From: a virus
Taxonomy: Duplodnaviria; Caudoviricetes
Virus record (IMG/VR): IMGVR_UViG_3300020042_003490
Coordinates: 1 to 24,193 of that record
Length of the DNA: 24,193 nt
Strand: one strand, 5' to 3'
The position numbers and the translations under genes were made by a program. Below, piece by piece: positions 5,019 to 24,183 of the stretch. The notes under the pieces are model-generated. The model was not told where the DNA came from and did no database searches. It saw nothing but the letters and a program-made list of their open reading frames with translations. Position 1 is the stretch's first letter; the number at the start of each line of letters is the position of its first letter.

Positions 5019-5049
5019 AACTATATTATATTATTAAAGTGAAATGTTT
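5019..5049 (-). promoter_or_regulatory. Putative leaderless late promoter AAACATTT-N13-TAATATAGTT-ATG
   Basis: Conserved bipartite motif abutting the ATG. Confidence 0.65.
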
Positions 5050-5482
5050 ATATTGGTACAGCACAGTCAGTCCAATCATTGACAGTAAGAGTGATACTCA
5101 TCTGATAGCCTGCAGCGTAATCTAGCAAGTCATTGTTGAGGGGTGTAAAGGTAGGTACTCCTACCACATCAAAGCTATAGTCAGTGCTATCAGTAAAGTA
5201 TATATTCAAATCACTAAGGATCTGTTGAGTATCACTTAAGATAGTGATGATGTTAGCTCTATCCTTTTGAATAATATCATAGCAGTAAATATCAAAGGTA
5301 AACTCAGTAGTGTTCTCAGTAGGGATCACTCCACTAGGCACGATATACACCAGGGGATACTTCTCATTCTGAGTAGCAAAGTTAAAGAGCTGTTCTTTGA
5401 AATCACTACCCACTTTGAACACTTGCTTATGGGCTGTGTAAAATGAAATAATTGTGTTTGTTATTGCTTGTAGACTGTTCAT
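5048..5482 (-). CDS. Probable tail completion/terminator protein, 144 aa
   Basis: Size, acidic composition, YPLVYI motif and beta-rich C-terminus; ATGA overlap with the tape measure gene. Confidence 0.55.
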   Translation of the reverse strand: MNSLQAITNTIISFYTAHKQVFKVGSDFKEQLFNFATQNEKYPLVYIVPSGVIPTENTTEFTFDIYCYDIIQKDRANIITILSDTQQILSDLNIYFTDSTDYSFDVVGVPTFTPLNNDLLDYAAGYQMSITLTVNDWTDCAVPI

Positions 5483-7752
5483 AGCTCTGAGTTTTTATTG
5501 ATCATATTTATTTTTTTCTGCACATTGGTTATCTGAGTTTCACTAACTACAGCTGTAACCATCATATTACCACCACCACCTGCTGTAGTACCTCCTGCAC
5601 TCATAGTGTTAGCATTGTTTGATGAGCCAAACAGCTGAGCTGCCTGAGGTATCATAGTGGCTGTATTGCTACCACCACCAGTATCTCCACCTCCTCCTCC
5701 ACCTCCTGATGTTACAGGGGTAGATGGTGATGTAAGTAACTGCTTAGCCTTAGCTATGTTTGTCGCTATCTGAATGATACCTGATGCGAACTGTGCTATA
5801 CCTGCAGTACCTGCTGTTACAGCATTTGCAGGGTTAGTGTTGGAAGCTGCTACTAATGCTGAGATAGCCTTAGCAGTATCTATACCTATTTGAACTAGAG
5901 CAGATGCCTTATTGAATTTAGCTAGCTTAGCCTGGTCTTTGATTAGCAGTCCTCCTAAGTTAGTCAAGCCATCTACTGTATCCTTAGCAAACCCTAGCTT
6001 AGCATCTCTTACCTTAGTAGCAGTATTTATTTCTGCAAGGGCAGCCATAGTATTAGCATTCTCAATATCTTTATCATGCTTATTTTTCAAAGCTAGTAAA
6101 GTCTCAGCGTGACCATTAGCAAGCTCTTGCTCTTTTATATATTTAGCTTCAATGGCTGCTATTTTTTTCTCATCATCAGTTAAAGTTAATTCATCCAATA
6201 GAGTTTGCTGATCTAGAATTTTCTTAGCTTTAACTGCCTCAGCAGCTGCCACCTTAGCCTCTTCAATTTTTAGATACTTATCTCTAATAGCTTGTAAATC
6301 TGTTTTTTGTTTTTCTAGTAAAACTTTCTCAAGCTCCTCATTACCCTTAGCAGTTTCATTCTTTTTATCATAAGCCTGATTAAGAGCCATCTCTTCTTTT
6401 TGCTGAGCAGTAAGAGTCATCTCATTCATTAAATCAAATTGGGCATCTTCACGCTTTATTCTGTTCTCATTTTCTTTTACTGCCAAATCATTTAATCTCT
6501 TTGCCTCAGCTTCAGCTTCCCTTATTCTCTTATCAGCTTCAGCTTTATTGCTTTTAGTTTTCTTTTTGTCACTATCAATAGTTATGTTATTAGCATCTTC
6601 TAATTTAATGGCTGCCTCCATAGCTTTTGCAGCCTCATCTGCATAGATATCAGCAGTTGCATTAGCTTCTTTCTTTTTTTCTTTTATTCTCTTTTTTTGT
6701 TTAGCTGCCAAGCCCTCATCACTACCATTGACAGCCTCATTCCCCTCTAATATACCTGCTACTAAAGGACCTCCTAGTGCATACCCTAGTAATTTATTTT
6801 CAGCAAACCATGATTTAGTCTTATCTCCTGCAGTAGTTTGGTCTTTCATTCCTGCTGTTATTGCCTTAGCACTTTCCTCAGCTGACTTCTTAGCAAACAC
6901 TTCAGCCTTAGCTCTTAGCATAGTTGCCTCTACGTATGCTTTAGTCTTAGCTACATAGTTTGCTTCAGCTTGAGCTAGAGTAGTAGCAGCTCCAAATGTA
7001 TCTCCTAATTTTTCATTGTATATAGCTAGTGCCTCTTCCTTAGTGATTACCCCTTGAGCTGCCATCTCAAACGCATTACCCACCTCATTGGTTACTTGGA
7101 TAGCTCCTGCTCCTGCAGTTTCATAAGCAGCCATAGCCTCAGTGGTAGTCTCTTGCACTGCCTTAAACTGCTCACTTTCAGTGACAGCTAATCCCATGCT
7201 ATCTATAAATTCATTCAGAGCTTCTAGGGCACCATCAAAAGCTGTACCCACAGCATCCATTATTATTTCTAGATAGCCAAGCTTATCCATTAGTACTACT
7301 ACTATAGCTATTACTGCAGCTATTACTGCAGCTATCAAATAAATTGGGTTAGCCAATAGGGTTTGACCTAATGACATGAATGCTTTACCTACTGTGCCTA
7401 TGGTAGATACTAGACCTGACATTGCCTTTTTAATATCATCAGGCTTAATGTTACCTATAGATTGAGCAAATACCTGAGCTTTCTGAGATGCCTCTTCAAA
7501 GTCCATAGACCTGATACTATCACCAATACCTGCAAAGCCCATAGATGCCTGCTGAAATTTACTCCCTGATGAGAATACATTGACAGCCTCATTAGCATCT
7601 TGTATCTGGTCTTTGAGTACACCTGCAGCTTGACTTAATCTTAATATATCAGCAGGATCAGTAGCATTGGCTATCTCACCTTTGAGTGCTTTTAACTCTG
7701 CTTTGATGGCACCTATGCCTGATATCTTTAATGGTATTTCAACTTCATTCAT
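5479..7752 (-). CDS. Tail tape measure protein, 757 aa
   Basis: Ala/Lys/Glu-rich helical protein with the ANPIYLIAAVIAAVIAIVVVL hydrophobic segment, a long coiled coil and a Gly-rich C-terminal linker. Confidence 0.85.
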   Translation of the reverse strand: MNEVEIPLKISGIGAIKAELKALKGEIANATDPADILRLSQAAGVLKDQIQDANEAVNVFSSGSKFQQASMGFAGIGDSIRSMDFEEASQKAQVFAQSIGNIKPDDIKKAMSGLVSTIGTVGKAFMSLGQTLLANPIYLIAAVIAAVIAIVVVLMDKLGYLEIIMDAVGTAFDGALEALNEFIDSMGLAVTESEQFKAVQETTTEAMAAYETAGAGAIQVTNEVGNAFEMAAQGVITKEEALAIYNEKLGDTFGAATTLAQAEANYVAKTKAYVEATMLRAKAEVFAKKSAEESAKAITAGMKDQTTAGDKTKSWFAENKLLGYALGGPLVAGILEGNEAVNGSDEGLAAKQKKRIKEKKKEANATADIYADEAAKAMEAAIKLEDANNITIDSDKKKTKSNKAEADKRIREAEAEAKRLNDLAVKENENRIKREDAQFDLMNEMTLTAQQKEEMALNQAYDKKNETAKGNEELEKVLLEKQKTDLQAIRDKYLKIEEAKVAAAEAVKAKKILDQQTLLDELTLTDDEKKIAAIEAKYIKEQELANGHAETLLALKNKHDKDIENANTMAALAEINTATKVRDAKLGFAKDTVDGLTNLGGLLIKDQAKLAKFNKASALVQIGIDTAKAISALVAASNTNPANAVTAGTAGIAQFASGIIQIATNIAKAKQLLTSPSTPVTSGGGGGGGDTGGGSNTATMIPQAAQLFGSSNNANTMSAGGTTAGGGGNMMVTAVVSETQITNVQKKINMINKNSEL

Positions 7753-10700
7753 TATGCTAAAAGTATTTTGTGGGCTACCCCGTTAATTCTTACATCCCAT
7801 GTTCGTGTTTGTGCAGCTGCTGCTACGCTCACTGCCCCTGCAGGATAAGCTACACTACCTGATACAAACTGATTAGAAGCTGTGGCAGTTGCCCCTCGGC
7901 CTAGTATTATGCTAGCATTAAAGTTGCCACTATTAGTGCTCATTCCTATAGATGTGTTATTATCACCTGTAGTATTAAGAAGTAAAGCATTATACCCTAA
8001 AGCTGTGTTATTATCACCTGTAGTATTGCTACCTAAGGCAGCTACACCTATAGCTGTGTTACTAAAACCTATACTGTTACTAACCATAGCACCTGAGCCT
8101 ACAGCTGTATTATCAAAACCTAAATTGTTAGTATATAAAGCACCTGATCCTAAAGCTGTGTTATTATCACCTGTGTTATTAGTTAAAGCAGATGCACCTA
8201 CAGCAGTGTCATTGTTACCTATGATGTTGGAAGCAAGTGCACTATCGCCTATAGCTGTGTTACCACCACCTGTAGTATTACTTCTTAACGCACTTTCGCC
8301 ATAGGTAGTATTGTTAACTATACCTCCTTGACCATTATTCCAAAGTGTTAAATCAATATCATTAGTTTGAACAAATGAAGGGAAGAGCTCTGATGTAGAT
8401 GTGCCATTTATGCTAGCAGTTATTAGGTTATCTGTTACCATTTCATTCTCACTCACTATGTACCCATCACCTACTACCACTGATCTAGTACCACCCACTA
8501 TCACGTTACCTCTACCCATTACCATAGCATTAGCTTGGTTACTGAATACATTAGATGCTAGCATCTTAGTGGTGTTAATAGTGCTCATAGCTAGAGCTTG
8601 CATAGGGCCTATACTTGCAGGAGGAGTAGGGATGATAGGACCGCCTGGCCCCATAAAGGTAAAATTAATCTCGTTATCTATACTGATGAGCTCTACCCTT
8701 GTAAGCTTGCGAGCATTAGCATCATAGTCAATTACCTTGTTAATATTCCACCATGAGTTATCTATTCTAATCTTATCATTGAGCTTAAGAGCTTGGATAT
8801 CATTCTCTTTCAAATCAAAGTTAGCTATCAGCATCTTACCATTGTTAATCTGCCCCATTGTACGCCTCCAATATCTGTTATATAGATTGTTATCTGTTAG
8901 GCTAGTAGGTTGGTAATAGTAGAAGTCACAGATAGCGAAGTTAATATCAAAGCTAGGAGTAAGTGGATCATCAAAGTGTCCCACCAAAGGATAGTCTGTT
9001 AAGTTAGTCATACCTACAGATCCATAGTCATAGATATAGAATTGACCACAGGTTGCTAGGGGTACACCTACAAGTGTCTTATCGTATAGTATCCTTATGT
9101 TTGTCTCAGGTGCTGATCCTGCTATCATAGGCACAAATGCTCCGAATAAAGTTTTAATAACAGGAGTAGGGCTAAAAAGTATAGGCTTAGTGTCTACCTC
9201 CTTAACATACTCATTATCAAAAATTACCTCTGCTTGACCATAGATATCACTAGTAGCATTTGAGTAAGTTACATTGGGTGCATCCTTATCTTCAGCATAA
9301 GTGAGTATAACTTTCTTAGCTGTAATCTCAGGTAAAAAAGATAGCTCTTGTTCCTGGTCCTTAGCAAGTTTCTCAGTCCAGTCTACCTCCACCCCACTAT
9401 CATAGAAGTCATCCCTATTCTGCAGTAGCAGTTTGTTAGGTTGAGTGCTATCTACTGAAGCATATAGGTTAAACATATTGAATATGCCCTTAATGAAGTC
9501 TGACTGCTTAATCTTTTTAGGCACGTAATCATTAACCTCTATAGTTCCACCTATGGCATAGATTGTACTGTTAGGCACTATGCTTATTTGTATAGATGTA
9601 ATCACAGCCTCTATAACTACAGCTGCAGAGTTAGTACCTCCTGTTCTAACTGTTCTCCAATATACTTGAGGTGATGCTTGCCCTGCTAATGGAGGTGATA
9701 CGTTTGCCACACCTAAACTTAAAGTGCCTGATGATAATTGATTAAGCTGTGGATAGGTAAGTGGTAAAGTAGTTTGTGCTGTTTGTGAAATAATAGTGGT
9801 AACACCATTAGGTATGGTTAAAGGGGCTTCCACTGCATTGTTTGCTATGTTGCTACCAGAAGGAGGTGTAGGGTTAGTGTATAGGTTACTAACAATAGGG
9901 CCTAAGCCTGCTGCTTGTAGATTTAATCTAGGCTTGTAGTAGGTAGGGTTAGCTGCTCCCTGACTATCACCTGCATATAAAATACCTCCTGATGTATTGT
10001 TTAACTGAAGGCTATAAGCTATGGTAACACTATAGTCATACTGCTGAGAGTTAGCTGAGCTGATATTGAATGGTGTAGTATATACACCTGTTACAGGATC
10101 AAAGATATTTTGAGGATCTTCTAGCTCAGTCCATCCTGTAAAAGTTTGTGCAGGGTTAATCGCAGTTGTACCTGGTCCAAAGTTTGCCCCTACAAAAGTA
10201 GTAGGAGTTGTAATCTCTGCTTTAACCAAATAGTCATTATAGTCAAAGTTATCTACACCTCCATTGTAAGGGATGATGAGCTTATCAAATCTATCATAGG
10301 CAATGGTAGGCCAATCATAAGTGAAGCCAGCATCAGCGAAAATTCTATCAAAGTATACCTTAGTAAAGATAGCAGGCTTAAATTCCTGAGTGTTGTATAC
10401 TCCTACACTTGAAGATGGTAGAAAATACTTGAAGCCATCCACTACTGTGTTAGTAAATCTAGCCACTACATTGGTAGCATCATAGGTATGGTTGAAATCT
10501 GAGAAGTCAATATCAGTTAATTCCTTGTTAGCTATGGCTGTAAAGAAATCTGCTTTGCTATCCTTAATCAATACCTCATACTCCACGTGCTCCTCATAGC
10601 CATCAGTCATCTGAGCCTTCTTAACTGAGGTAAGCTGAACAGATACATCCTCCATGATAGGTATGCCATCCTGAATAACTGATCCTGTAGTAAGAGCATT

Positions 10701-10908: not shown

Positions 10909-12369
10909 TTAAGAGTTTACTATATTGTTGTTAGCTAGCTTAACTACTATGCTCTGCTTAATTAAATTCTTATTCCGTTGCTTAAACTCCTCAAAGCTAG
11001 AAGTGACTATAGTACAGCTTACATACTCAGCACTCTCAGGTGCATCACAGTCAGCATCATAGTTGCTAAGCTTAATGTAAGTGTTAGGGGAGCTGATTAA
11101 CTCAGTGAAGTACATAGCCATTGTTTCATTCATCCAATCAGTGTTAAGTGCTATGGTAGTATCAGTGCTTATGTAAGTGTTAGTCATACCTGTCTCAGTA
11201 GTTTCATACAACCATCTATCTATCCCTAAAGTCTCAACGTATCCTGGTATATCCTTATTAAACTGCTCACGTGTTACGTTACCTGTAGTGTATGCCCTAC
11301 CTGTAAAAGCAAAGCTACCCCATGAGCCCATACGATCTAAGAATAAGATAGAGTGCTCTACTGTTCTTACTCTCCTATCTAAGTTCACCTTGTATTGTTT
11401 TGAGTCTGGAAAGCCATTCCTTTCATAGCGTACTGTATACCATTCAGTAGTAGGCTTAATCATTGGTAGTGCTCCTGATACTACAGATAGTACACCATGA
11501 TTGTTAGGCCCTATAGATATACCACTAACATGATCTACAGCTGTTACGTTCTTTTCAAAAGTATCACCATCACTAGTCTGAAAGAACACTGTATCAGGAG
11601 GAGTAGGTGATCCATTAGCCACAGCATTTACCCATAGATCCTGGGATAAAGTAGCATAGAAATCAGAAGGTGGTAGGTTGGTTAAAAATCTATCTTGAAA
11701 GCTATTGAGCATAAACTCATCATAGTCATACACAGGCCACTCTACCCATCTGATTGCTCCGTTGAATACAAAGTTGTTTAGTGCTGTAATGATATCCCTA
11801 GTTACTGTCTTGCGACCATCTGCAAAAGTGATAGCTCCATTGATAGTTATATCAGTTACAGCTGCAAATGGTGAGCTTACTACTAGGAAGCCTACCCCTA
11901 CAGATAGAACTGTTAAGAGCCCCTCAAGGTTTGGGTTGGCTACACCTAGATCTGCCTGAGTGATATTGATTTGATCCCCTGCCACAAATGTATTAGCTAC
12001 GTTTATCTGCACGTTACCTGCATTGTTAGTTAGGTTAGAAGTATAACTAGTAGTAGTCAAGTACTCCTCCCCTACATGAACATCATACTTGTAGTGGCTA
12101 TTGGTTGCATTGTATGCTGTAGTGTTAGTTAGGTTAAGGTCATAGCTTACCTGAGCCTGTAAGAGCTTCGATAGATCTACCTCACCATAACCAGTGCTAT
12201 ATACAGGCATAACTCTGTACTCTGCTATCTTGTTAGCTGTGCCACTTTCGTAGATGTCAAAGATATACTTAAAACCTTGTAGGTTGTTGTTTGAGCTATC
12301 ATAGATAAACTTGATAGGGTTGTATGCAGGCATCAGAGGTTGTGCCCTTGCTATGTTAATTATTGCCAT
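10909..12369 (-). CDS. Tail structural protein (distal tail/baseplate-like), 486 aa
   Basis: Beta-rich; C-terminal ILFLDRMGSWGSFAF and LNTDWM...ELISSP motifs as in Bacteroidetes-phage tail proteins; first gene of the tail operon. Confidence 0.65.
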   Translation of the reverse strand: MAIINIARAQPLMPAYNPIKFIYDSSNNNLQGFKYIFDIYESGTANKIAEYRVMPVYSTGYGEVDLSKLLQAQVSYDLNLTNTTAYNATNSHYKYDVHVGEEYLTTTSYTSNLTNNAGNVQINVANTFVAGDQINITQADLGVANPNLEGLLTVLSVGVGFLVVSSPFAAVTDITINGAITFADGRKTVTRDIITALNNFVFNGAIRWVEWPVYDYDEFMLNSFQDRFLTNLPPSDFYATLSQDLWVNAVANGSPTPPDTVFFQTSDGDTFEKNVTAVDHVSGISIGPNNHGVLSVVSGALPMIKPTTEWYTVRYERNGFPDSKQYKVNLDRRVRTVEHSILFLDRMGSWGSFAFTGRAYTTGNVTREQFNKDIPGYVETLGIDRWLYETTETGMTNTYISTDTTIALNTDWMNETMAMYFTELISSPNTYIKLSNYDADCDAPESAEYVSCTIVTSSFEEFKQRNKNLIKQSIVVKLANNNIVNS

Positions 12370-14822: not shown

Positions 14823-14970
14823 ACTGTGTTAAAATTAAAAAAGTGTAATATAATGCTATCCATAAACCTGCAGCTCTACTTGCCCACTCATAGTCTAAAC
14901 AAAACAAAGCAAGTCCACAGCTCAGAGCTATTAACAGGCTAAAGATACTAATAACTTGGCTCGGTTTCAT
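14806..14970 (-). CDS. Small two-TM membrane protein, 54 aa (MKPSQVISIFSLLIALSCGLALFCLDYEWASRAAGLWIALYYTFLILTQYEDKE)
   Basis: Translated by hand; start sits on the late promoter motif; two hydrophobic stretches and a charged C-terminus. Confidence 0.65.
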   Translation of the reverse strand: MKPSQVISIFSLLIALSCGLALFCLDYEWASRAAGLWIALYYTFLILTQYEDKE

Positions 14971-15481
14971 ACCTATATTGTAATTTGTTTATGTTTTGTT
15001 TCAATTCTTTAATCAGGTAGTAAGCTGAGGTATGAGTAATACCAAAATAAATAGCCATAGCTCTACTAGTAATGTATCCCTTATCTATGTAAGCCTCAAA
15101 TACTATTAGCTGTATCTTATCTGTTATCTCATTCCTATAGATCTCTATCAAACCTTTGTTAAAAGAGTAGGCTCTATCCTCCCTCAGCTTATGCACCAGG
15201 TCATCATCATCTACAGGCTCAGTGTTTGGGTGCTCAATGGCTGTTATCTTATCATCTCGGTGGCTCTTTGATGTACTCCATAGGATCTGATACTTAATTG
15301 TATTGAGCAGATATCCCTTAACCTTATCAGGATCACCATCTATACTAACTACGTGAAGGTAGGAGTTGTTTATGACTGTATCAGCGTCAATGTAGCTACC
15401 CATCTTAGATAGGAAGTAGGCAGTGTATGCCCTTACCTCACCGTAGTGCAGGCTAATGTACTGATCTAAGGCTTTTTTCAT
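14948..15481 (-). CDS. Phage-encoded ECF-like RNA polymerase sigma factor (177 aa, MKKALDQY...)
   Basis: Region-2-like ADTVINNSYL...KGYLLNTIKYQ and region-4-like HTH TSRAMAIYFGITHTSAYYLIKELK. Start moved from 15613 to 15481 to avoid a long overlap with the upstream gene. Confidence 0.65.
   Translation of the reverse strand: MKKALDQYISLHYGEVRAYTAYFLSKMGSYIDADTVINNSYLHVVSIDGDPDKVKGYLLNTIKYQILWSTSKSHRDDKITAIEHPNTEPVDDDDLVHKLREDRAYSFNKGLIEIYRNEITDKIQLIVFEAYIDKGYITSRAMAIYFGITHTSAYYLIKELKQNINKLQYRYETEPSY
14971..15001 (-). promoter_or_regulatory. Putative leaderless late promoter AAACAAAA-N13-CAATATAGGT-ATG inside the 3' end of the sigma gene
   Basis: Same motif and spacing as the other late elements; heads the packaging operon. 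Confidence 0.6.
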
Positions 15482-15668
15482 ACCACGTTTCAAAGTCCTT
15501 TGACCAAATTCTCCTCCTAACAGAAGCACAAAAGCATTCCCTAGGCTGTCTACCCTCATACTTCTCTTTAATTTTGTAGAGTTTAATACAGCTGTATTTA
15601 GTATACCTATCACTATCAGGCATCTTAGCTATATTATCAATTAGTTCTATCTCAGCTTCTGTAAACAT
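15453..15668 (-). CDS. Hypothetical protein with a CFC motif, 71 aa
   Basis: ORF track; operon context upstream of the sigma gene. Confidence 0.7.
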   Translation of the reverse strand: MFTEAEIELIDNIAKMPDSDRYTKYSCIKLYKIKEKYEGRQPRECFCASVRRRIWSKDFETWYEKSLRSVH

Positions 15669-15895
15669 TCATCAAGTATATAAGCAAGCAGTGCAGCCTG
15701 ACAAGCTAAAATAAAATCAAAGGTACAAATTATAGTAAGCCAAAAAGCCACACATTTAATACAGCTCAGTGCAGAGTGTATATGTATGGCTATTGGGTAC
15801 CTGGTGTTATACTTAAATAAGCTGTTAAAGGTTGCTTGTAGTGGCTCAAAAGTAACAAACCACCAAGCTAAAGGTATCAGGGCTAGTAAAGTCAT
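15647..15895 (-). CDS. Membrane protein with a CxxC..FW motif, 82 aa
   Basis: Hydrophobic segments and SCIKCVAFW. Confidence 0.7.
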   Translation of the reverse strand: MTLLALIPLAWWFVTFEPLQATFNSLFKYNTRYPIAIHIHSALSCIKCVAFWLTIICTFDFILACQAALLAYILDECLQKLR

Positions 15896-15899
15896 GGCC

Positions 15900-15907
15900 C
15901 AAATATA
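15900..15907 (-). promoter_or_regulatory. Host-type -7 box TATATTTG, 4 nt before the ATG at 15895
   Basis: TAnnTTTG match in the intergenic gap; same TTACTATATTTG context as at 17670. Confidence 0.7.
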
Positions 15908-17099: not shown

Positions 17100-17647
17100 A
17101 TCATAGGTATTAAAAGCAGTGAATTATTTTGTACATCTGTAAGATCGAAGCTCTCTTTAAGTTTCTCTACAGTGAATTTACCATCAGCTATAGCCTTAAC
17201 AGCCTCAGCAAATCTTTTAGCATCTATCTTAGGCTTAGCAGTTGTAGCTACGTGGCCATCATCATCTGTGGCTTGCAAAGTTAGCAGGCTTTGGATGGTG
17301 TACCTACGAAAGTAAGAAATTTGACTACCCTGCTTCTGAGCATCTAGGGATAAATCTAAAGCCATACAGCTAGAGATACTAAAGCCAGTGTAGATACAAA
17401 CTATCTGAGTGCATACACTACCACCATCTATAGGCTGCAGTAATAACAGATCATGCTGTAATAGGATAGGCTCAACAGTTTCTAAGATACTATTGATATC
17501 TGCATAAGATTTCTTAAAATGGGGGTTAGTAGCATTCTTATGTACTTTACCGATTAGTTGTTTAGCCTTGTGAAGGCGAACATAGAAGGGAGCAGGCTGC
17601 TGCTCAACCTCCTGAGGCTTTACAGCCTTAGTTGTTGTTTTTTCCAT
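17096..17647 (-). CDS. erf: ERF-family single-strand annealing protein, 183 aa
   Basis: KNATNPHFKKSYADI and QKQGSQISYFRRYTIQSLLTL...DDDG ERF signature. Confidence 0.9.
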   Translation of the reverse strand: MEKTTTKAVKPQEVEQQPAPFYVRLHKAKQLIGKVHKNATNPHFKKSYADINSILETVEPILLQHDLLLLQPIDGGSVCTQIVCIYTGFSISSCMALDLSLDAQKQGSQISYFRRYTIQSLLTLQATDDDGHVATTAKPKIDAKRFAEAVKAIADGKFTVEKLKESFDLTDVQNNSLLLIPMI

Positions 17648-17669
17648 TGGTTAGTTAATTAATTGTTTA

Positions 17670-18202: not shown

Positions 18203-20523
18203 ATCTTAGTAATTATAAAGTATCTACCTCCTACATTCCTATCTTTTTTTAAATTATATCCCTTAAATTTACAGTACTCATTAACCCACTTTAAATACTT
18301 CTGTGTATTTAGATCATGCCATCCTCCTGTAAATGTCTGAAAGTCCTGAATAGAAGTATTGTTATAGTGCATAGCATCTAAAGTAATGTTACCCTCTATT
18401 GCATAATCATAAAACTCCTTGTTAGTAGATGATATAAACCTTTTGTCATTAGCATTAATTGCTACAGCCTTAACTAAGCCCATTGATAAGAATTTCTGCA
18501 GGTTGTTTATCATGTAGTTATCAAATACTAACCAATCTACTACAGTCCAACTATCAAACAATAACCTACCATACTCATCTAGTGGGTTTCGCTGTGCATT
18601 AAAGTACTGATTAAACTCTATCTCATGCCTTCTCCTATCATGGCTACCACCTGCACCACTTATCACATAGTTGGTAGTAATCACAATCTTAGGGGAGCGT
18701 TCAAATGGGATAAAGATCTCATCCTTATTTTTTCTGTTCACTGTTATCCCTTCTGAGATTAAACTAAATAGCTGCTCAAAGTCAAAGTTCTTTTTAACAT
18801 CATCAAATGCTAGGATTTGACTATCTAAATTCACCCTCTGATAAACAAAATCACTCTTCTGAGGGTTGAATGCTTTACCATCTATCTTAACTATATTTCT
18901 AATCTTACCTATGGCAGTTAGTACTAAGCTCTTACCACTCCCTCCATTAGGGTTATCATCTATCTCCTGATCATTAAAAATAATTGCTTTCTGATCTGTT
19001 TTATCTTTGTAGGTATGGAGTAAATAACCTAGGGTAGTCTCTAAGGCGTTTACCCTCTGCTCATCATCTGCAGATACCTTAGATACAAAGCTCTTGAAGT
19101 CATTTTCTATGCTTTTAGTTGGCTTGTAATCCCTATCAATAATTTGCCTATCCCATATGTAGCCATCTATATCAATGTAGGGCACGATATCAATCTTATT
19201 TTTAGTAATCTTAACTACTCCATTACGATAAGGAATAAAGCTCACATCTTTAGTATCCTGCAGCATCATTAATTCAATAGGCTCTAGCATAGATAAGTGA
19301 CCATCTGTAAATAGGTAGGGACTTTTAGAACAGTAATTCCATACATCCACTTGCTTCTGCTTCATTAGGTAAGCTAGCACAAAATCTTTCACCTGGTCCA
19401 CTGAGCTAAGATTAACTTTGTTTTCTATCACCCTTACAAAGGTGGGCTTCTCTGATCTCTCAGGATAATACTTATTAAAGCCATACTTGTAAAGGAAATC
19501 TCTATACTTCATAGGATCTACACTAACTACTTTTTTATCACTAATGGACCAGAATACATCCTCACTATTAGCGACATCCTTTTTAACATCCTCTACCACA
19601 TCAGGCTTAATATCTAATTGCTTAGAGATATCATTAGGGGAGATACCCTCTTTTAGTTTTGACCTTACCTTTAAGATAGTTTCTTTATCCTCAAAATACT
19701 TAGTGCCTTTATTAGGGTTTTTATAAGCAGATCCTACACAGGTATTAATTTCTATTTGAGTAAAGTCCTTAGCACTATATTGGTGAAGGTAAAATTTAGC
19801 AGTATTCTCACTAATGCCATACTCACAAAAACAGTTAGCTACTTTAAATACCCAATTATTTCTCCCATTAGATATATCTCCATGGTTAAACTTCATTATA
19901 TTCTCAATGATATTAGCTTCATTAGTCATGGGTAGCACTGGCACCCTTTCAAATGAGCTATGCCCTTTCTCCTCTTCCATCAAATCAAATACCTCAGCAT
20001 CTAAATTTATATAGGCACCACGATCATAAGACTCAAAGCATACTCTACTAACATTACAGCTACTAGCATCAAAGTAATCACTATCAATAAATTCCTGAAA
20101 AGCTTTAAACCTTCTCTTATGCGTAAATTTGTCTGATGGTGGTATCTTTATCACACATTTTAGCCCTTTACCTGATGGTGATATGAATATCATAAAGACA
20201 TAAGGGCACTCCATTAACCTTGCCTTCTCAGCTTTCATCACCTTAGCACTAGGATAATCATCAAAATCTAAAATACAAAGCCCTGAGTGCTCAATAAGGC
20301 CATTATCATTTCTTTCATTAAAGGTGCCATTAAACATGATAGCCCTGAGGCTGTTTTTTAGGCTGCTGTATGCAGGATCATCCTCCTCCATAGCTCTAAG
20401 AGCAGTTATCTTATTAATTAGTTCAGGATAGCCTTCCTTAATTCTATTGTATACATCCACCACATCTTGTGTGTAGGGAGTTTCTTTAGAATTGAATAAG
20501 GACTTGAATACAGATATCTTCAT
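18199..20523 (-). CDS. Primase-helicase (BT4734/VirE-N-like prim-pol domain, PriCT-like domain, SF3-type helicase), 774 aa
   Basis: HSGLCILDFDD, FISPSGKGLK, GRNNWVF, Walker A GGSGKS, Walker B ILAFDD and motif C IVITTN. Confidence 0.9.
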   Translation of the reverse strand: MKISVFKSLFNSKETPYTQDVVDVYNRIKEGYPELINKITALRAMEEDDPAYSSLKNSLRAIMFNGTFNERNDNGLIEHSGLCILDFDDYPSAKVMKAEKARLMECPYVFMIFISPSGKGLKCVIKIPPSDKFTHKRRFKAFQEFIDSDYFDASSCNVSRVCFESYDRGAYINLDAEVFDLMEEEKGHSSFERVPVLPMTNEANIIENIMKFNHGDISNGRNNWVFKVANCFCEYGISENTAKFYLHQYSAKDFTQIEINTCVGSAYKNPNKGTKYFEDKETILKVRSKLKEGISPNDISKQLDIKPDVVEDVKKDVANSEDVFWSISDKKVVSVDPMKYRDFLYKYGFNKYYPERSEKPTFVRVIENKVNLSSVDQVKDFVLAYLMKQKQVDVWNYCSKSPYLFTDGHLSMLEPIELMMLQDTKDVSFIPYRNGVVKITKNKIDIVPYIDIDGYIWDRQIIDRDYKPTKSIENDFKSFVSKVSADDEQRVNALETTLGYLLHTYKDKTDQKAIIFNDQEIDDNPNGGSGKSLVLTAIGKIRNIVKIDGKAFNPQKSDFVYQRVNLDSQILAFDDVKKNFDFEQLFSLISEGITVNRKNKDEIFIPFERSPKIVITTNYVISGAGGSHDRRRHEIEFNQYFNAQRNPLDEYGRLLFDSWTVVDWLVFDNYMINNLQKFLSMGLVKAVAINANDKRFISSTNKEFYDYAIEGNITLDAMHYNNTSIQDFQTFTGGWHDLNTQKYLKWVNEYCKFKGYNLKKDRNVGGRYFIITKI

Positions 20524-20540
20524 TTAGTTAGTTTTGGCTG

Positions 20541-20548: not shown

Positions 20549-20562
20549 ATCATTATTTTCAC

Positions 20563-20664
20563 ATGACAAGTCTATGACGCATTTATGACAAGTTTATGAC
20601 AAGTTTTTTTTAGCAATATTCCCACTGCTATTGAGTATTAGCGATTTCATGACAAGATGACGAG
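20563..20664 (+). repeat. Iteron-like ATGAC(A/G) repeats; putative replication origin
   Basis: ATGAC at 20563, 20574, 20585 and 20596 (11-bp period) and at 20649 and 20657, flanked by T and A tracts, in the gap upstream of the primase-helicase. Confidence 0.7.
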
Positions 20665-22443: not shown

Positions 22444-22756
22444 TATTTAGTTCGTTATAATACTCTTTGTTATCTAGGTGCCACTGCCATACATCAAATC
22501 TATCAGGATCTTCTAGTATGCTATCCTCAATAGCTGTTATTATTTCTTTTAGCTCTTCTGAGTTAGGGGTGTAGGGATGGCATACGTTGTTACACCACTG
22601 CTCACCTTTATCTAGCCAAATGCTTACTGTGGTTTCATTAGTTTCCTCATCAAATGAGGTAAAGCACCACTCAAAATCAAGGATAAATTCAATGTGATAG
22701 GTTTCATACCAAATGGATGCTGTGTACTTTTCTACTTGTAAATCTTCTAGGTTCAT
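22424..22756 (-). CDS. Acidic, aromatic-rich hypothetical early protein, 110 aa
   Basis: ORF track; A-rich start context. Confidence 0.75.
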   Translation of the reverse strand: MNLEDLQVEKYTASIWYETYHIEFILDFEWCFTSFDEETNETTVSIWLDKGEQWCNNVCHPYTPNSEELKEIITAIEDSILEDPDRFDVWQWHLDNKEYYNELNNDRDDR

Positions 22757-22767
22757 TTTAAAGCGTT

Positions 22768-22905
22768 TTAAAGGTTAGTAATGTATGCAAATGTATAGAC
22801 ACTCACCCAAAACAATATAAACACTACAGCAGTGCTTAAAATGTCTCTATGCTCATCAGTGAGGGGTGTAAAGTAATAGATAAGGTCGGATATTTTCTTT
22901 CTCAT
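22768..22905 (-). CDS. Single-TM small protein, 45 aa (MRKKISDLIYYFTPLTDEHRDILSTAVVFILFWVSVYTFAYITNL)
   Basis: Translated by hand; ATGA overlap with the upstream ORF. Confidence 0.65.
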   Translation of the reverse strand: MRKKISDLIYYFTPLTDEHRDILSTAVVFILFWVSVYTFAYITNL

Positions 22906-23078: not shown

Positions 23079-23105
23079 AATTGGTTAGTTTTAATTAGTA
23101 ATGGT

Positions 23106-23232: not shown

Positions 23233-23277
23233 AAAAAAATAGCCCCCCTGCCAAACTAACCAAAGATACAGAGGGGC
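23233..23277 (-). terminator. Intrinsic terminator downstream of the metallophosphoesterase/sRNA
   Basis: 9-bp GC-rich stem that pairs fully only on the minus strand (G-U), followed by a 7-T tract. Confidence 0.8.
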
Positions 23278-23298
23278 CTGGTCTCTAATACGAGACCT
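23233..23298 (-). ncRNA. Candidate ~66-nt antisense small RNA (two hairpins; the second is an intrinsic terminator with an 18-nt loop)
   Basis: GGTCTC-N6-GAGACC hairpin, then GCCCCTCTG-TATCTTTGGTTAGTTTGG-CAGGGGGGC-TATTTTTTT. Upstream TTG-N20-TAATTTTG promoter. The loop is complementary to three early start regions. Confidence 0.6.
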
Positions 23299-23302
23299 AG
23301 TG

Positions 23303-23333
23303 CAAAATTACATATTAAATTTGTAACTATCAA
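23303..23333 (-). promoter_or_regulatory. Host-type promoter TTG-N20-TAATTTTG overlapping the metallophosphoesterase stop codon
   Basis: -7 box at 23310-23303 and TTG at 23333-23331, consistent with Bacteroidetes -33/-7 spacing. Confidence 0.55.
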
Positions 23334-24183
23334 TAAATTTTATAGATTTTCTATCACCTGTAGTCTCTCTACCACATTTAATAGTAAGTATCCTACCACC
23401 TAATGGCTTAATGGGAGCCCCACGTTCAACATGCCACCCATGAGATCCATCTCCATACTCCTCTTTATAGGTACCGGTAAGCATTAAGTGTAATTGTTTT
23501 TGCTTAAGTGTGTAACCTGTTACAGCATGCTTTTCTAATGTATCTCTCACATCATTTCTGCATGAATTTTCATGTATGTGGCCCATTGTAAAAACATCAA
23601 AGTTCTCATAAGTTTCTAGAGCCCTGGTTAAATTTATTGCACCTTTGGTAACTATACCACCACCACCTGATCCATGGAAGTATTTGATCTTAGTAGTAAA
23701 AGAGGTAGTATTGCCAGGACTAAAAGCCTGCTTAACTACTAACCATCCACCATAGCCACCTGTCTGTACATTAGATCCTGCTTTATAGTTGAGGAGGTCC
23801 ACAAATCTCTGCAGTATATCAGTTTCTTGAAATTTAATTATAGCAGTTTCATGGTTACCGTATCCTATTAGCTTAATGATATGTGCATAGGGTAGAAACC
23901 ACTCTGCTGCTGTATTAATTATACTATCTAAGTACATAGCATTGTTATGCTCAGGCCTAATGTCAGACTTGTTTCTCCTATTATCGCCTCTCCCCTGCAT
24001 GCAGCAAAATAGGTCCCCATTTACCATCACAGGTATCTCCTCTTTTACGCAATAGTCCAGGTGTCTCTTTAGCATATCTCTATCACAGTGAGGGTTATCC
24101 CAATGCAAATCACTAAGCATAGCTATCCTTACTTCACTGCCTTCTAGTAAAAGCTCGTGAACATTCTTTGAGTGTCTTATCAT
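23308..24183 (-). CDS. Calcineurin-like metallophosphoesterase, 291 aa
   Basis: All five motifs present: SDLH, NGD, GNHE, FHG and GHIH. Confidence 0.9.
   Translation of the reverse strand: MIRHSKNVHELLLEGSEVRIAMLSDLHWDNPHCDRDMLKRHLDYCVKEEIPVMVNGDLFCCMQGRGDNRRNKSDIRPEHNNAMYLDSIINTAAEWFLPYAHIIKLIGYGNHETAIIKFQETDILQRFVDLLNYKAGSNVQTGGYGGWLVVKQAFSPGNTTSFTTKIKYFHGSGGGGIVTKGAINLTRALETYENFDVFTMGHIHENSCRNDVRDTLEKHAVTGYTLKQKQLHLMLTGTYKEEYGDGSHGWHVERGAPIKPLGGRILTIKCGRETTGDRKSIKFIDSYKFNM

Follow-up and report, generated by a model that had tools for sequence, protein, structure and literature searches.

What does a short non-coding unit, set between the last late gene and the first early gene of a small phage, do for the virus that carries it? 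The window, by which we mean the whole stretch of 24,193 nucleotides that was analyzed, is most of a phage genome (completeness rating 84%), and its main genes all lie on the minus strand in the order phosphoesterase, small early genes, HNH, HTH protein, primase-helicase, erf, exonuclease, ssb, terminase, and tail and head genes. A first-pass annotation had read the unit behind the phosphoesterase gene as a small RNA with a loop directed against the starts of three early operons, and had proposed for it the role of an early-to-late switch or of a control of dormancy or superinfection. Here we follow this reading through the anatomy of the unit, the starts that it matches, and its relatives.

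The unit and its genomic setting

The portal and lysis genes are absent from the window; in a close relative, read by eye, both lie directly upstream of the phosphoesterase gene, and we therefore place the unit at the late-to-early junction (table 1). The best phage matches of the window are Flavobacterium, Polaribacter, and Nonlabens phages, and no close cultured relative was found in the phage collection. Given these matches and the TAnnTTTG-type promoters, the host is probably one of the Bacteroidota, likely a Flavobacterium-type bacterium. GTDB yielded 12 matches, none on a contig longer than 34 kb; the MAGs concerned have mixed labels, in 4 of the 12 cases Flavobacterium or Flavobacteriaceae, and no integrated prophage was seen among these 12. 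About 670 to 1400 stored stretches in IMG/VR match a marker gene of this phage group. The first early operon of the window includes a gene for a 127-aa HTH protein (21125-20742), with a Bac_DnaA_C match at E 1e-6 that falls below the Pfam cut-off. Between this gene and the primase promoter lie four TTGTCAT repeats and one variant (20560-20660, minus), which are partly retained in relatives and are possible origin iterons or a possible operator for the HTH protein.

At the sequence level the unit is a promoter-to-terminator non-coding cassette, and the TTG, the spacer, the TAATTTTG box, the hairpins, the U-tract, and the target motifs described in the first-pass annotation were all located. The TAATTTTG box overlaps the phosphoesterase stop. 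Because the Flavobacterium -7 box is placed at -12 to -5 in the available part of the published account (PMC9723704), the transcript is predicted to start at 23298. The fold of the unit has an energy of -32.1 kcal/mol (z -4.73), which none of 200 shuffles equaled, and an Rfam search of the window returned nothing at E<=5, in line with the earlier remark that it was not recognized as a described RNA family. A large loop complementary to the targets is indeed present; it had been drawn with 18 nt and is better drawn with 16 nt, closed by a U-G/C-G pair that is retained in 17 of 17 distinct hairpins. The loop is mostly unpaired in the structure ensemble, with two weak internal pairs. Contigs from one RNA-labelled run (share 0.06) cover all 30 bins, early and late alike; these are assembled contigs of mixed relatives, mostly below 95% identity, and show neither RNA ends nor strand.

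Table 1. Positions of the unit, of the tags, and of the untagged operon in the window
Feature	Position	Strand	Remarks
Calcineurin-like phosphoesterase	23308..24183	minus	last gene of the late and lysis region; its stop carries the promoter box of the unit
Predicted unit promoter, host sigma-A type	23303..23333	minus	TTG 23333-23331, 20-nt spacer, -7 box TAATTTTG 23310-23303
Predicted 66-nt small RNA	23233..23298	minus	no ORF; two hairpins and U-tract
5' hairpin	23280..23297	minus	sequence differs among relatives, mostly stays a hairpin
Intrinsic terminator hairpin and U-tract	23233..23278	minus	hairpin proper 23278-23241, U-tract 23239-23233; doubles as the 3' end of the late operon
Terminator loop, 16 nt	23252..23267	minus	seed UUGGUUAGUUU at 23263-23253
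Tag 1	23081..23091	minus	11/11; -13 to -3 of the AUG of the first early gene (58 aa, 23078-22902)
Tag 2	17647..17656	minus	10/10; -9 to +1 of erf (17647-17096; erf-exonuclease-ssb operon)
Tag 3	20523..20534	minus	12 nt, one G-U; -11 to +1 of primase-helicase (20523-18199)
Possible weak fourth tag	22773..22779	minus	7 nt; leader of a 110-aa gene (22756-22424), after TACATTTG 22795-22788
Host-type promoter of the untagged operon	15895..15907	minus	box 15907-15900; ATG 4 nt behind the box; predicted leaderless, no tag
Sigma-70-like protein, candidate late-gene activator	14948..15613	minus	

Tags at the starts of early operons

The words to which the loop is complementary, which we call tags, stand directly behind promoter boxes: tag 1 follows a TATATTTG box at 23113-23106, tag 2 the same box at 17677-17670, and tag 3 the variant box TACATTTA at 20548-20541, which in the compared relatives reads TACATTTA or TATATTTA. 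The earlier statement that each target lies behind a host-type promoter thus holds for the boxes, present at all three, but the full TTG-spacer-TAnnTTTG form is found among these promoters only at erf; that of the first gene has its -7 box and no TTG at 17-23 nt. The exact 10-mer AACTAACCAA occurs at three sites in the window, in sense at the 23078 and 17647 starts (23081-23090 and 17647-17656, minus) and in antisense in the loop (23254-23263, plus), against a mean of 0.07 and a maximum of 1 in 100 shuffled windows, so that the motif is not scattered through the genome. With one mismatch allowed there are 6 sites against 2.83 expected, a count that 9 of 100 shuffles reached and that is not significant alone.

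Ranked by pairing with the loop, the three named starts take places 1-3 among the 41 sense ORF starts, and with opening costs included the first gene ranks 1, erf 2, and primase 5 of 268 coding-strand sites; the proposed check, whether these starts rank top, thus came out in favor among the ORF starts. By raw pairing energy on both strands and with accessibility disregarded, the same sites ranked 7th, 14th, and outside the top 25. Raw energy alone therefore does not single out the targets, and the ranking needed restriction to starts or accessibility. The weak fourth tag ranks 15 among the accessibility-scored sites, and in the family of the 110-aa gene the short tag is found at 20 distinct sites. 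The leader of this gene (22756-22795, minus) holds, besides the short tag, a word closer to the AUG that resembles the type-B tag of relatives described below, and the two words are possibly the trace of an exchange between seed groups. In a weak test for host-gene targets, three Flavobacteriaceae-labelled MAGs taken as stand-ins for the host showed no excess of the tag with a start, which was found 1, 5, and 9 times against 5, 2, and 12 times for reversed controls.

Seed and tag among relatives

Three scans with phosphoesterases found 203 loci in which the stop could be read, with some contigs represented more than once, and a terminator unit lies within 140 nt of the stop in 168 of these 203 loci. 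The units fall into seven seed types. Type A, defined by the core of the loop that the window carries, comprises 65 units in which this core is unchanged; the other six (B-G) occupy the same genomic position and carry the seed in a 5' tail, where it mostly includes the complement of the AUG. A loose loop-plus-terminator pattern searched in IMG/VR also gave unrelated chance matches, which were not counted as members. Of 124 distinct related units, 115 have a TAnnTT[TCA]G box in front of them, a box that is also found at 4 of 35 unit-less phosphoesterase stops and at 1 of 433 stops of other genes; in 36 of the 124 units the box, counted here in a relaxed form, lies wholly 3' of the stop. The phosphoesterase gene is not required for the unit, as a pattern scan located L243-type loci in which the type-A loop, again with a promoter box of its own, follows another gene. 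In several units behind another upstream gene, the unpaired 5' part holds a second copy of the seed in place of the 5' hairpin. At L243 itself a 258-aa protein (5184-5960) stands where the phosphoesterase would be, and a 211-aa initiator-like gene, whose untagged start overlaps the preceding gene, replaces the primase-helicase gene. By eye the 258-aa protein resembles, we presume, a DEDD-type exonuclease.

These counts bear on the possibility that the action of the loop is confined to cis or to the late phase, either as the 3' end of the late mRNA in read-through or as part of a promoterless RNA derived from its 3' UTR. The unit does close the late and lysis operon, its nearest target lies about 160 nt downstream, and its -7 box usually overlaps the TAA stop, which supplies part of the box. 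The unit and its three targets are, however, separate loci of one strand, at distances of 0.16, 2.7, and 5.6 kb, an arrangement that is not that of a cis-antisense RNA, and the distant erf and primase leaders have promoter boxes of their own and covary with the seed as strongly as the near one. Nor would action in cis account for the boxes wholly past the stop and their absence from other stops, or for similar units elsewhere and on the other strand (L204, L121), and we regard it as improbable.

In relatives of type A the leaders carry the tag twice, in tandem. Counted with a relaxed 8-10-nt pattern, distinct type-A tag sites number 146 at sense starts (in 12 protein clusters, and with a promoter box ahead of 122), 62 elsewhere, and 0 at antisense starts. 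Were the tag instead a DNA operator or another protein-binding site, with the 127-aa HTH protein as one possible ligand, the terminator copy would be a reversed operator. Such a protein is encoded in the first early operon, and just downstream of a promoter box is a possible place for an operator; but the copy in the unit is antisense in all seven types, whether in the terminator loop or in the 5' tail, and it usually includes the complement of the start codon. Moreover, the tags track the AUG and not the promoter, even on genes that lack a box, and the cassette holds no ORF to be controlled. We consider an operator very improbable.

In L001, L003, L012, L014, and other type-A relatives, a 16-nt word lies in either orientation 10-60 nt downstream of the unit; it is absent from the window and is a possible protein-binding or origin site.

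Among 17 distinct type-A hairpins, 98.7% of the stem cells are paired and 12 cells show two-sided changes, a level that 0 of 500 shuffles reached, with the reservation that this shuffle does not control for relatedness. Conservation is higher in the loop than in the flanking stem and the 5' hairpin, which is not what one would expect if the match to the starts had no function, whether the unit were a plain terminator with an inverted remnant of a repeated leader cassette in its loop or the loop marked where a small opposite-strand gene begins. Early leaders in these phages are repeated AT-rich cassettes, and opposite-strand ORFs of 44-71 codons do start at the seed in some units of types B, D, E, and F, as would suit one or the other of these readings. 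The loop of the window, however, contains no opposite-strand ATG, and across units such ORFs range from absent to 71 codons, on which grounds the opposite-strand gene was rejected; a relic would, in addition, not be renewed in seven seed types. We find a functionless match very improbable, and cis-only action, a DNA operator, and a relic all fit the data poorly.

The first-pass annotation had proposed to test whether loop and leader motif change together in relatives while the stems show compensatory changes. Besides the two-sided stem changes just described, the seven seed types change with their tags. Each seed type was set against the leaders of orthologous genes, group by group, under 5040 label permutations; the groups had been defined after inspection and are not phylogenetically independent. 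The own seed fits best in 6 of 7 groups for the first early gene (p=0.0002), in 6 of 7 groups for erf (p=0.0002), and, with paralogues below 50% identity left out, in 3 of 4 groups for primase (p=0.042), and seven control genes (exo, ssb, VRR-like, capsid, protease, phosphoesterase, and a 149-aa late gene) gave p values of 0.06-0.89. In a tree of 59 Erf proteins, where long branches meet at the root according to a tool warning, the type-A genomes L005 and L036 fall inside the type-B erf clade (100/100) and yet carry the type-A tag, and a type-G genome shares the type-B erf lineage with a leader that matches the G seed. The presence of the type-A tag on two deeply split erf lineages indicates that the tag follows the RNA and not the gene. 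Since loop and tag change together in relatives, the unit likely makes a small RNA that would silence the tagged genes by base pairing.

Exact 10-mer matches are few for three of the types, at 1.1 (D), 0.9-2.0 (F), and 0.0 (G) per 100 starts, and they are not specific for type C, whose seeds hit starts of type A (3.7) no less often than those of type C (3.1). A test for a G-U bias found 9 compatible and 3 incompatible changes and 29 transversions, with 40 leader sites that could not be placed. Wobble pairing was considered for type-B seeds with a C-to-U change at their 5' end and dropped, as the base may precede the predicted start.

In the chief rival reading, the same pairing has as its main purpose the exclusion of later-arriving related phages with the same tag, whose early operons would be silenced by RNA accumulated from the genome that infected first; the seed-tag swaps would then be escapes that define immunity groups. 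Such pairing would silence an incoming phage of the same tag and could thereby explain the re-keying of seed types, of which there are seven at one position behind phosphoesterases about 70% identical; the refitting of the tag onto a foreign erf and the short type-A and type-B-like tags side by side in the leader of the 110-aa gene would also suit exclusion, and C4 specificity in P1/P7 works in this manner in the part of the account available (PMC5320573). Slow co-drift of seed and tag would, however, yield the same pattern, and some seeds cross-pair with the leaders of other groups (F on B, D on G, G on C). In addition, tyrosine integrase (PF00589), serine recombinase (PF07508), and HTH_3 repressor (PF01381) were found in 0 of 5 records (the window and four relatives, 3 of the 5 rated 100% complete), hence there would be no lysogen to defend. 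Exclusion as the main purpose thus seems to us unlikely.

Beyond these groups, the more distant relatives L204, L121, and L193 have similar promoter-seed-terminator units with matching starts at other positions, and at many other distant loci no such unit was present in the fetched DNA. An eighth seed type lies on the strand opposite the phosphoesterase in L204 (about 18058, minus), L175, L178, and L325, and several starts in L204 are matched strongly by its seed (-21 to -16 kcal/mol). On weaker evidence, a version of the unit appears to be present in the cultured Nonlabens phages P12024S and P12024L: it lies behind the holin gene (about 10187-10245 of NC_018271), its tail matches a promoter-led leader over 12/12 nt, and promoter-led leaders match better than other leaders (p 0.02 and 0.006), the seed being AT-rich. 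In P12024S (NC_018271) an unannotated 36-codon ORF stands behind TATATTTG at 11179-11289, directly after a metallophosphatase gene. A scan of G004, a complete relative of 30.4 kb, found neither an antisense copy nor a unit; the unit is accordingly dispensable there and not universal. The erf leader of G004 retains one upstream copy of the tag, and the AUG-proximal copy is degenerate; the retained copy would fit either decay or a different function of the tag. A second non-coding unit of about 90 nt from promoter to terminator, visibly alike in L121 (about 1773-1870, plus) and L327 (about 5046-5145, plus), showed no clear match to start regions, and another long non-coding unit lies near 11043 in L078.

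A probable brake on early genes and its relation to known RNAs

Taken together, we judge it probable, as a reading of the sequence, that the unit makes a trans-acting RNA that would brake the tagged early, replication, and recombination operons by pairing over their starts. That it is a pairing repressor RNA of some kind seems highly probable to us, and that its main job is an early shut-down within one infection somewhat probable. After entry, the host sigma-A would transcribe the RNA and its targets together, and because of their common promoter type the braking by the RNA would be delayed or dose-dependent. A stable RNA of two hairpins would accumulate, transcripts of the late operon, which stop at this terminator too, may supply extra loop, and the loop would pair over -13 to +1 of the tagged starts and block the loading of ribosomes, so that translation of the first cistron of each tagged operon would drop. 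In the available portions of two accounts, Bacteroidetes mRNAs are described as lacking SD sequences (PMC6847099), and GibS is an example of an sRNA that pairs at start regions and represses such SD-less mRNAs (PMC7366714).

An operon with a sigma-like gene is predicted to escape the RNA. The ATG lies 3-4 nt behind the box of this operon in 12 of 12 distinct type-A contexts, and given the distance of 4 nt in the window, its mRNA is predicted to be leaderless; the tag is absent. The protein at 15613-14948 has no Pfam or PHROG match, and in a language-model comparison its nearest Pfam-bearing Atlas clusters (0.96) carry Sigma70_r2/r4 or UPF0122; in phage P12024S a gene with sigma-70 region 2 precedes terL. 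We treat the protein as a putative sigma-like late activator, as a lead only. A leaderless and untagged operon of this kind suits a brake on early genes that leaves the late activator running, and with this operon spared the infection would pass from early to late. The proposal of an early-to-late switch thereby gains support, whereas lysogenic dormancy, offered beside it, is disfavored by the lack of integrase, serine recombinase, and HTH_3 repressor in the five records.

The regulatory RNAs known from phages have, for the most part, a single overlapping gene or genes of the host as targets and come from temperate phages of Proteobacteria and Firmicutes. Among phage RNAs, C4 targets one operon, and P22 sar controls development or superinfection by base pairing. 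The unit differs from C4 in that it has its own promoter box and terminator, its tags stand on three or more separate operons, and no integrase was detected. As described in the available part of one account, the C4 RNA of P1/P7 is phage-encoded and structured, with loops that pair in trans and partly cover the ribosome-binding site (PMC5320573). The likeness thus lies in a small structured phage RNA that pairs loop to target, with changes in the loop that set specificity between related phages. In the same account, however, C4 has three stems, is cut from a precursor by RNase P, and serves lysogeny and immunity of temperate coliphages (PMC5320573), whereas the unit has two hairpins, no Rfam match at E<=5, and no sign of a temperate immunity region in the domain searches above.

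GibS and other sRNAs of Bacteroides thetaiotaomicron, a lineage with no Hfq or ProQ homologue according to the accessible part of the source (PMC7366714), are similar in that a single-stranded seed pairs around the start codon of SD-less mRNAs, and seed types B-G share the layout of a seed in the 5' tail. GibS is, by that source, chromosomal and metabolic, whereas the unit is phage-encoded with the phage's own operons, marked by a shared tag, as its targets, and the type-A seed sits in the terminator loop. A regulatory function in the loop of an intrinsic terminator is also described, in the portion available, for ArrS, RseX, and SdsR on fepA (PMC11979758); that function needs Hfq and RNase E and likely involves no base pairing, whereas the loop of the unit is an 11-nt exact complement of its targets. 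Lambda OOP, PreS, BTP1 STnc6030, and P22 sas are base-pairing phage RNAs in the control of development or superinfection (10.1101/2024.10.31.621285; PMC12197685), but OOP, STnc6030, and sas are cis-antisense to one locus and PreS is Hfq-dependent with mainly host genes as targets, and none of these accounts, in the parts available, describes an RNA aimed at a tag common to several early operons of the phage itself. A search of main texts of the open full-text literature likewise found neither this RNA described nor any phage RNA directed against a shared early-gene tag. The unit resembles C4 and GibS in its working and belongs to neither family; with a promoter, a terminator, no coding sequence, a single-stranded seed directed against distant starts, and covariation, it would have the features of a trans-encoded sRNA.

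The unit points to a regulon-wide RNA control of the phage's own early program through a tag in SD-less leaders, and this tag has been re-keyed at least seven times in one abundant uncultured phage group. A bolder reading, which we hold to be possible rather than probable, is that a single protein-free RNA circuit serves as both clock and immunity in non-integrating Bacteroidota phages: it would recognize the tag at early-operon starts, leave the leaderless late-activator operon alone, and keep out later relatives with the same tag, with seed-tag pairs swapped as immunity groups. As P12024S and P12024L, which appear to carry a version, are cultured, this reading is testable now. The natural seed-tag pairs may also furnish orthogonal translation switches for Bacteroidota, where the tools of other bacteria work poorly. 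If true, RNA control of this kind would answer how small phages that have no recognizable repressor turn down their early genes.
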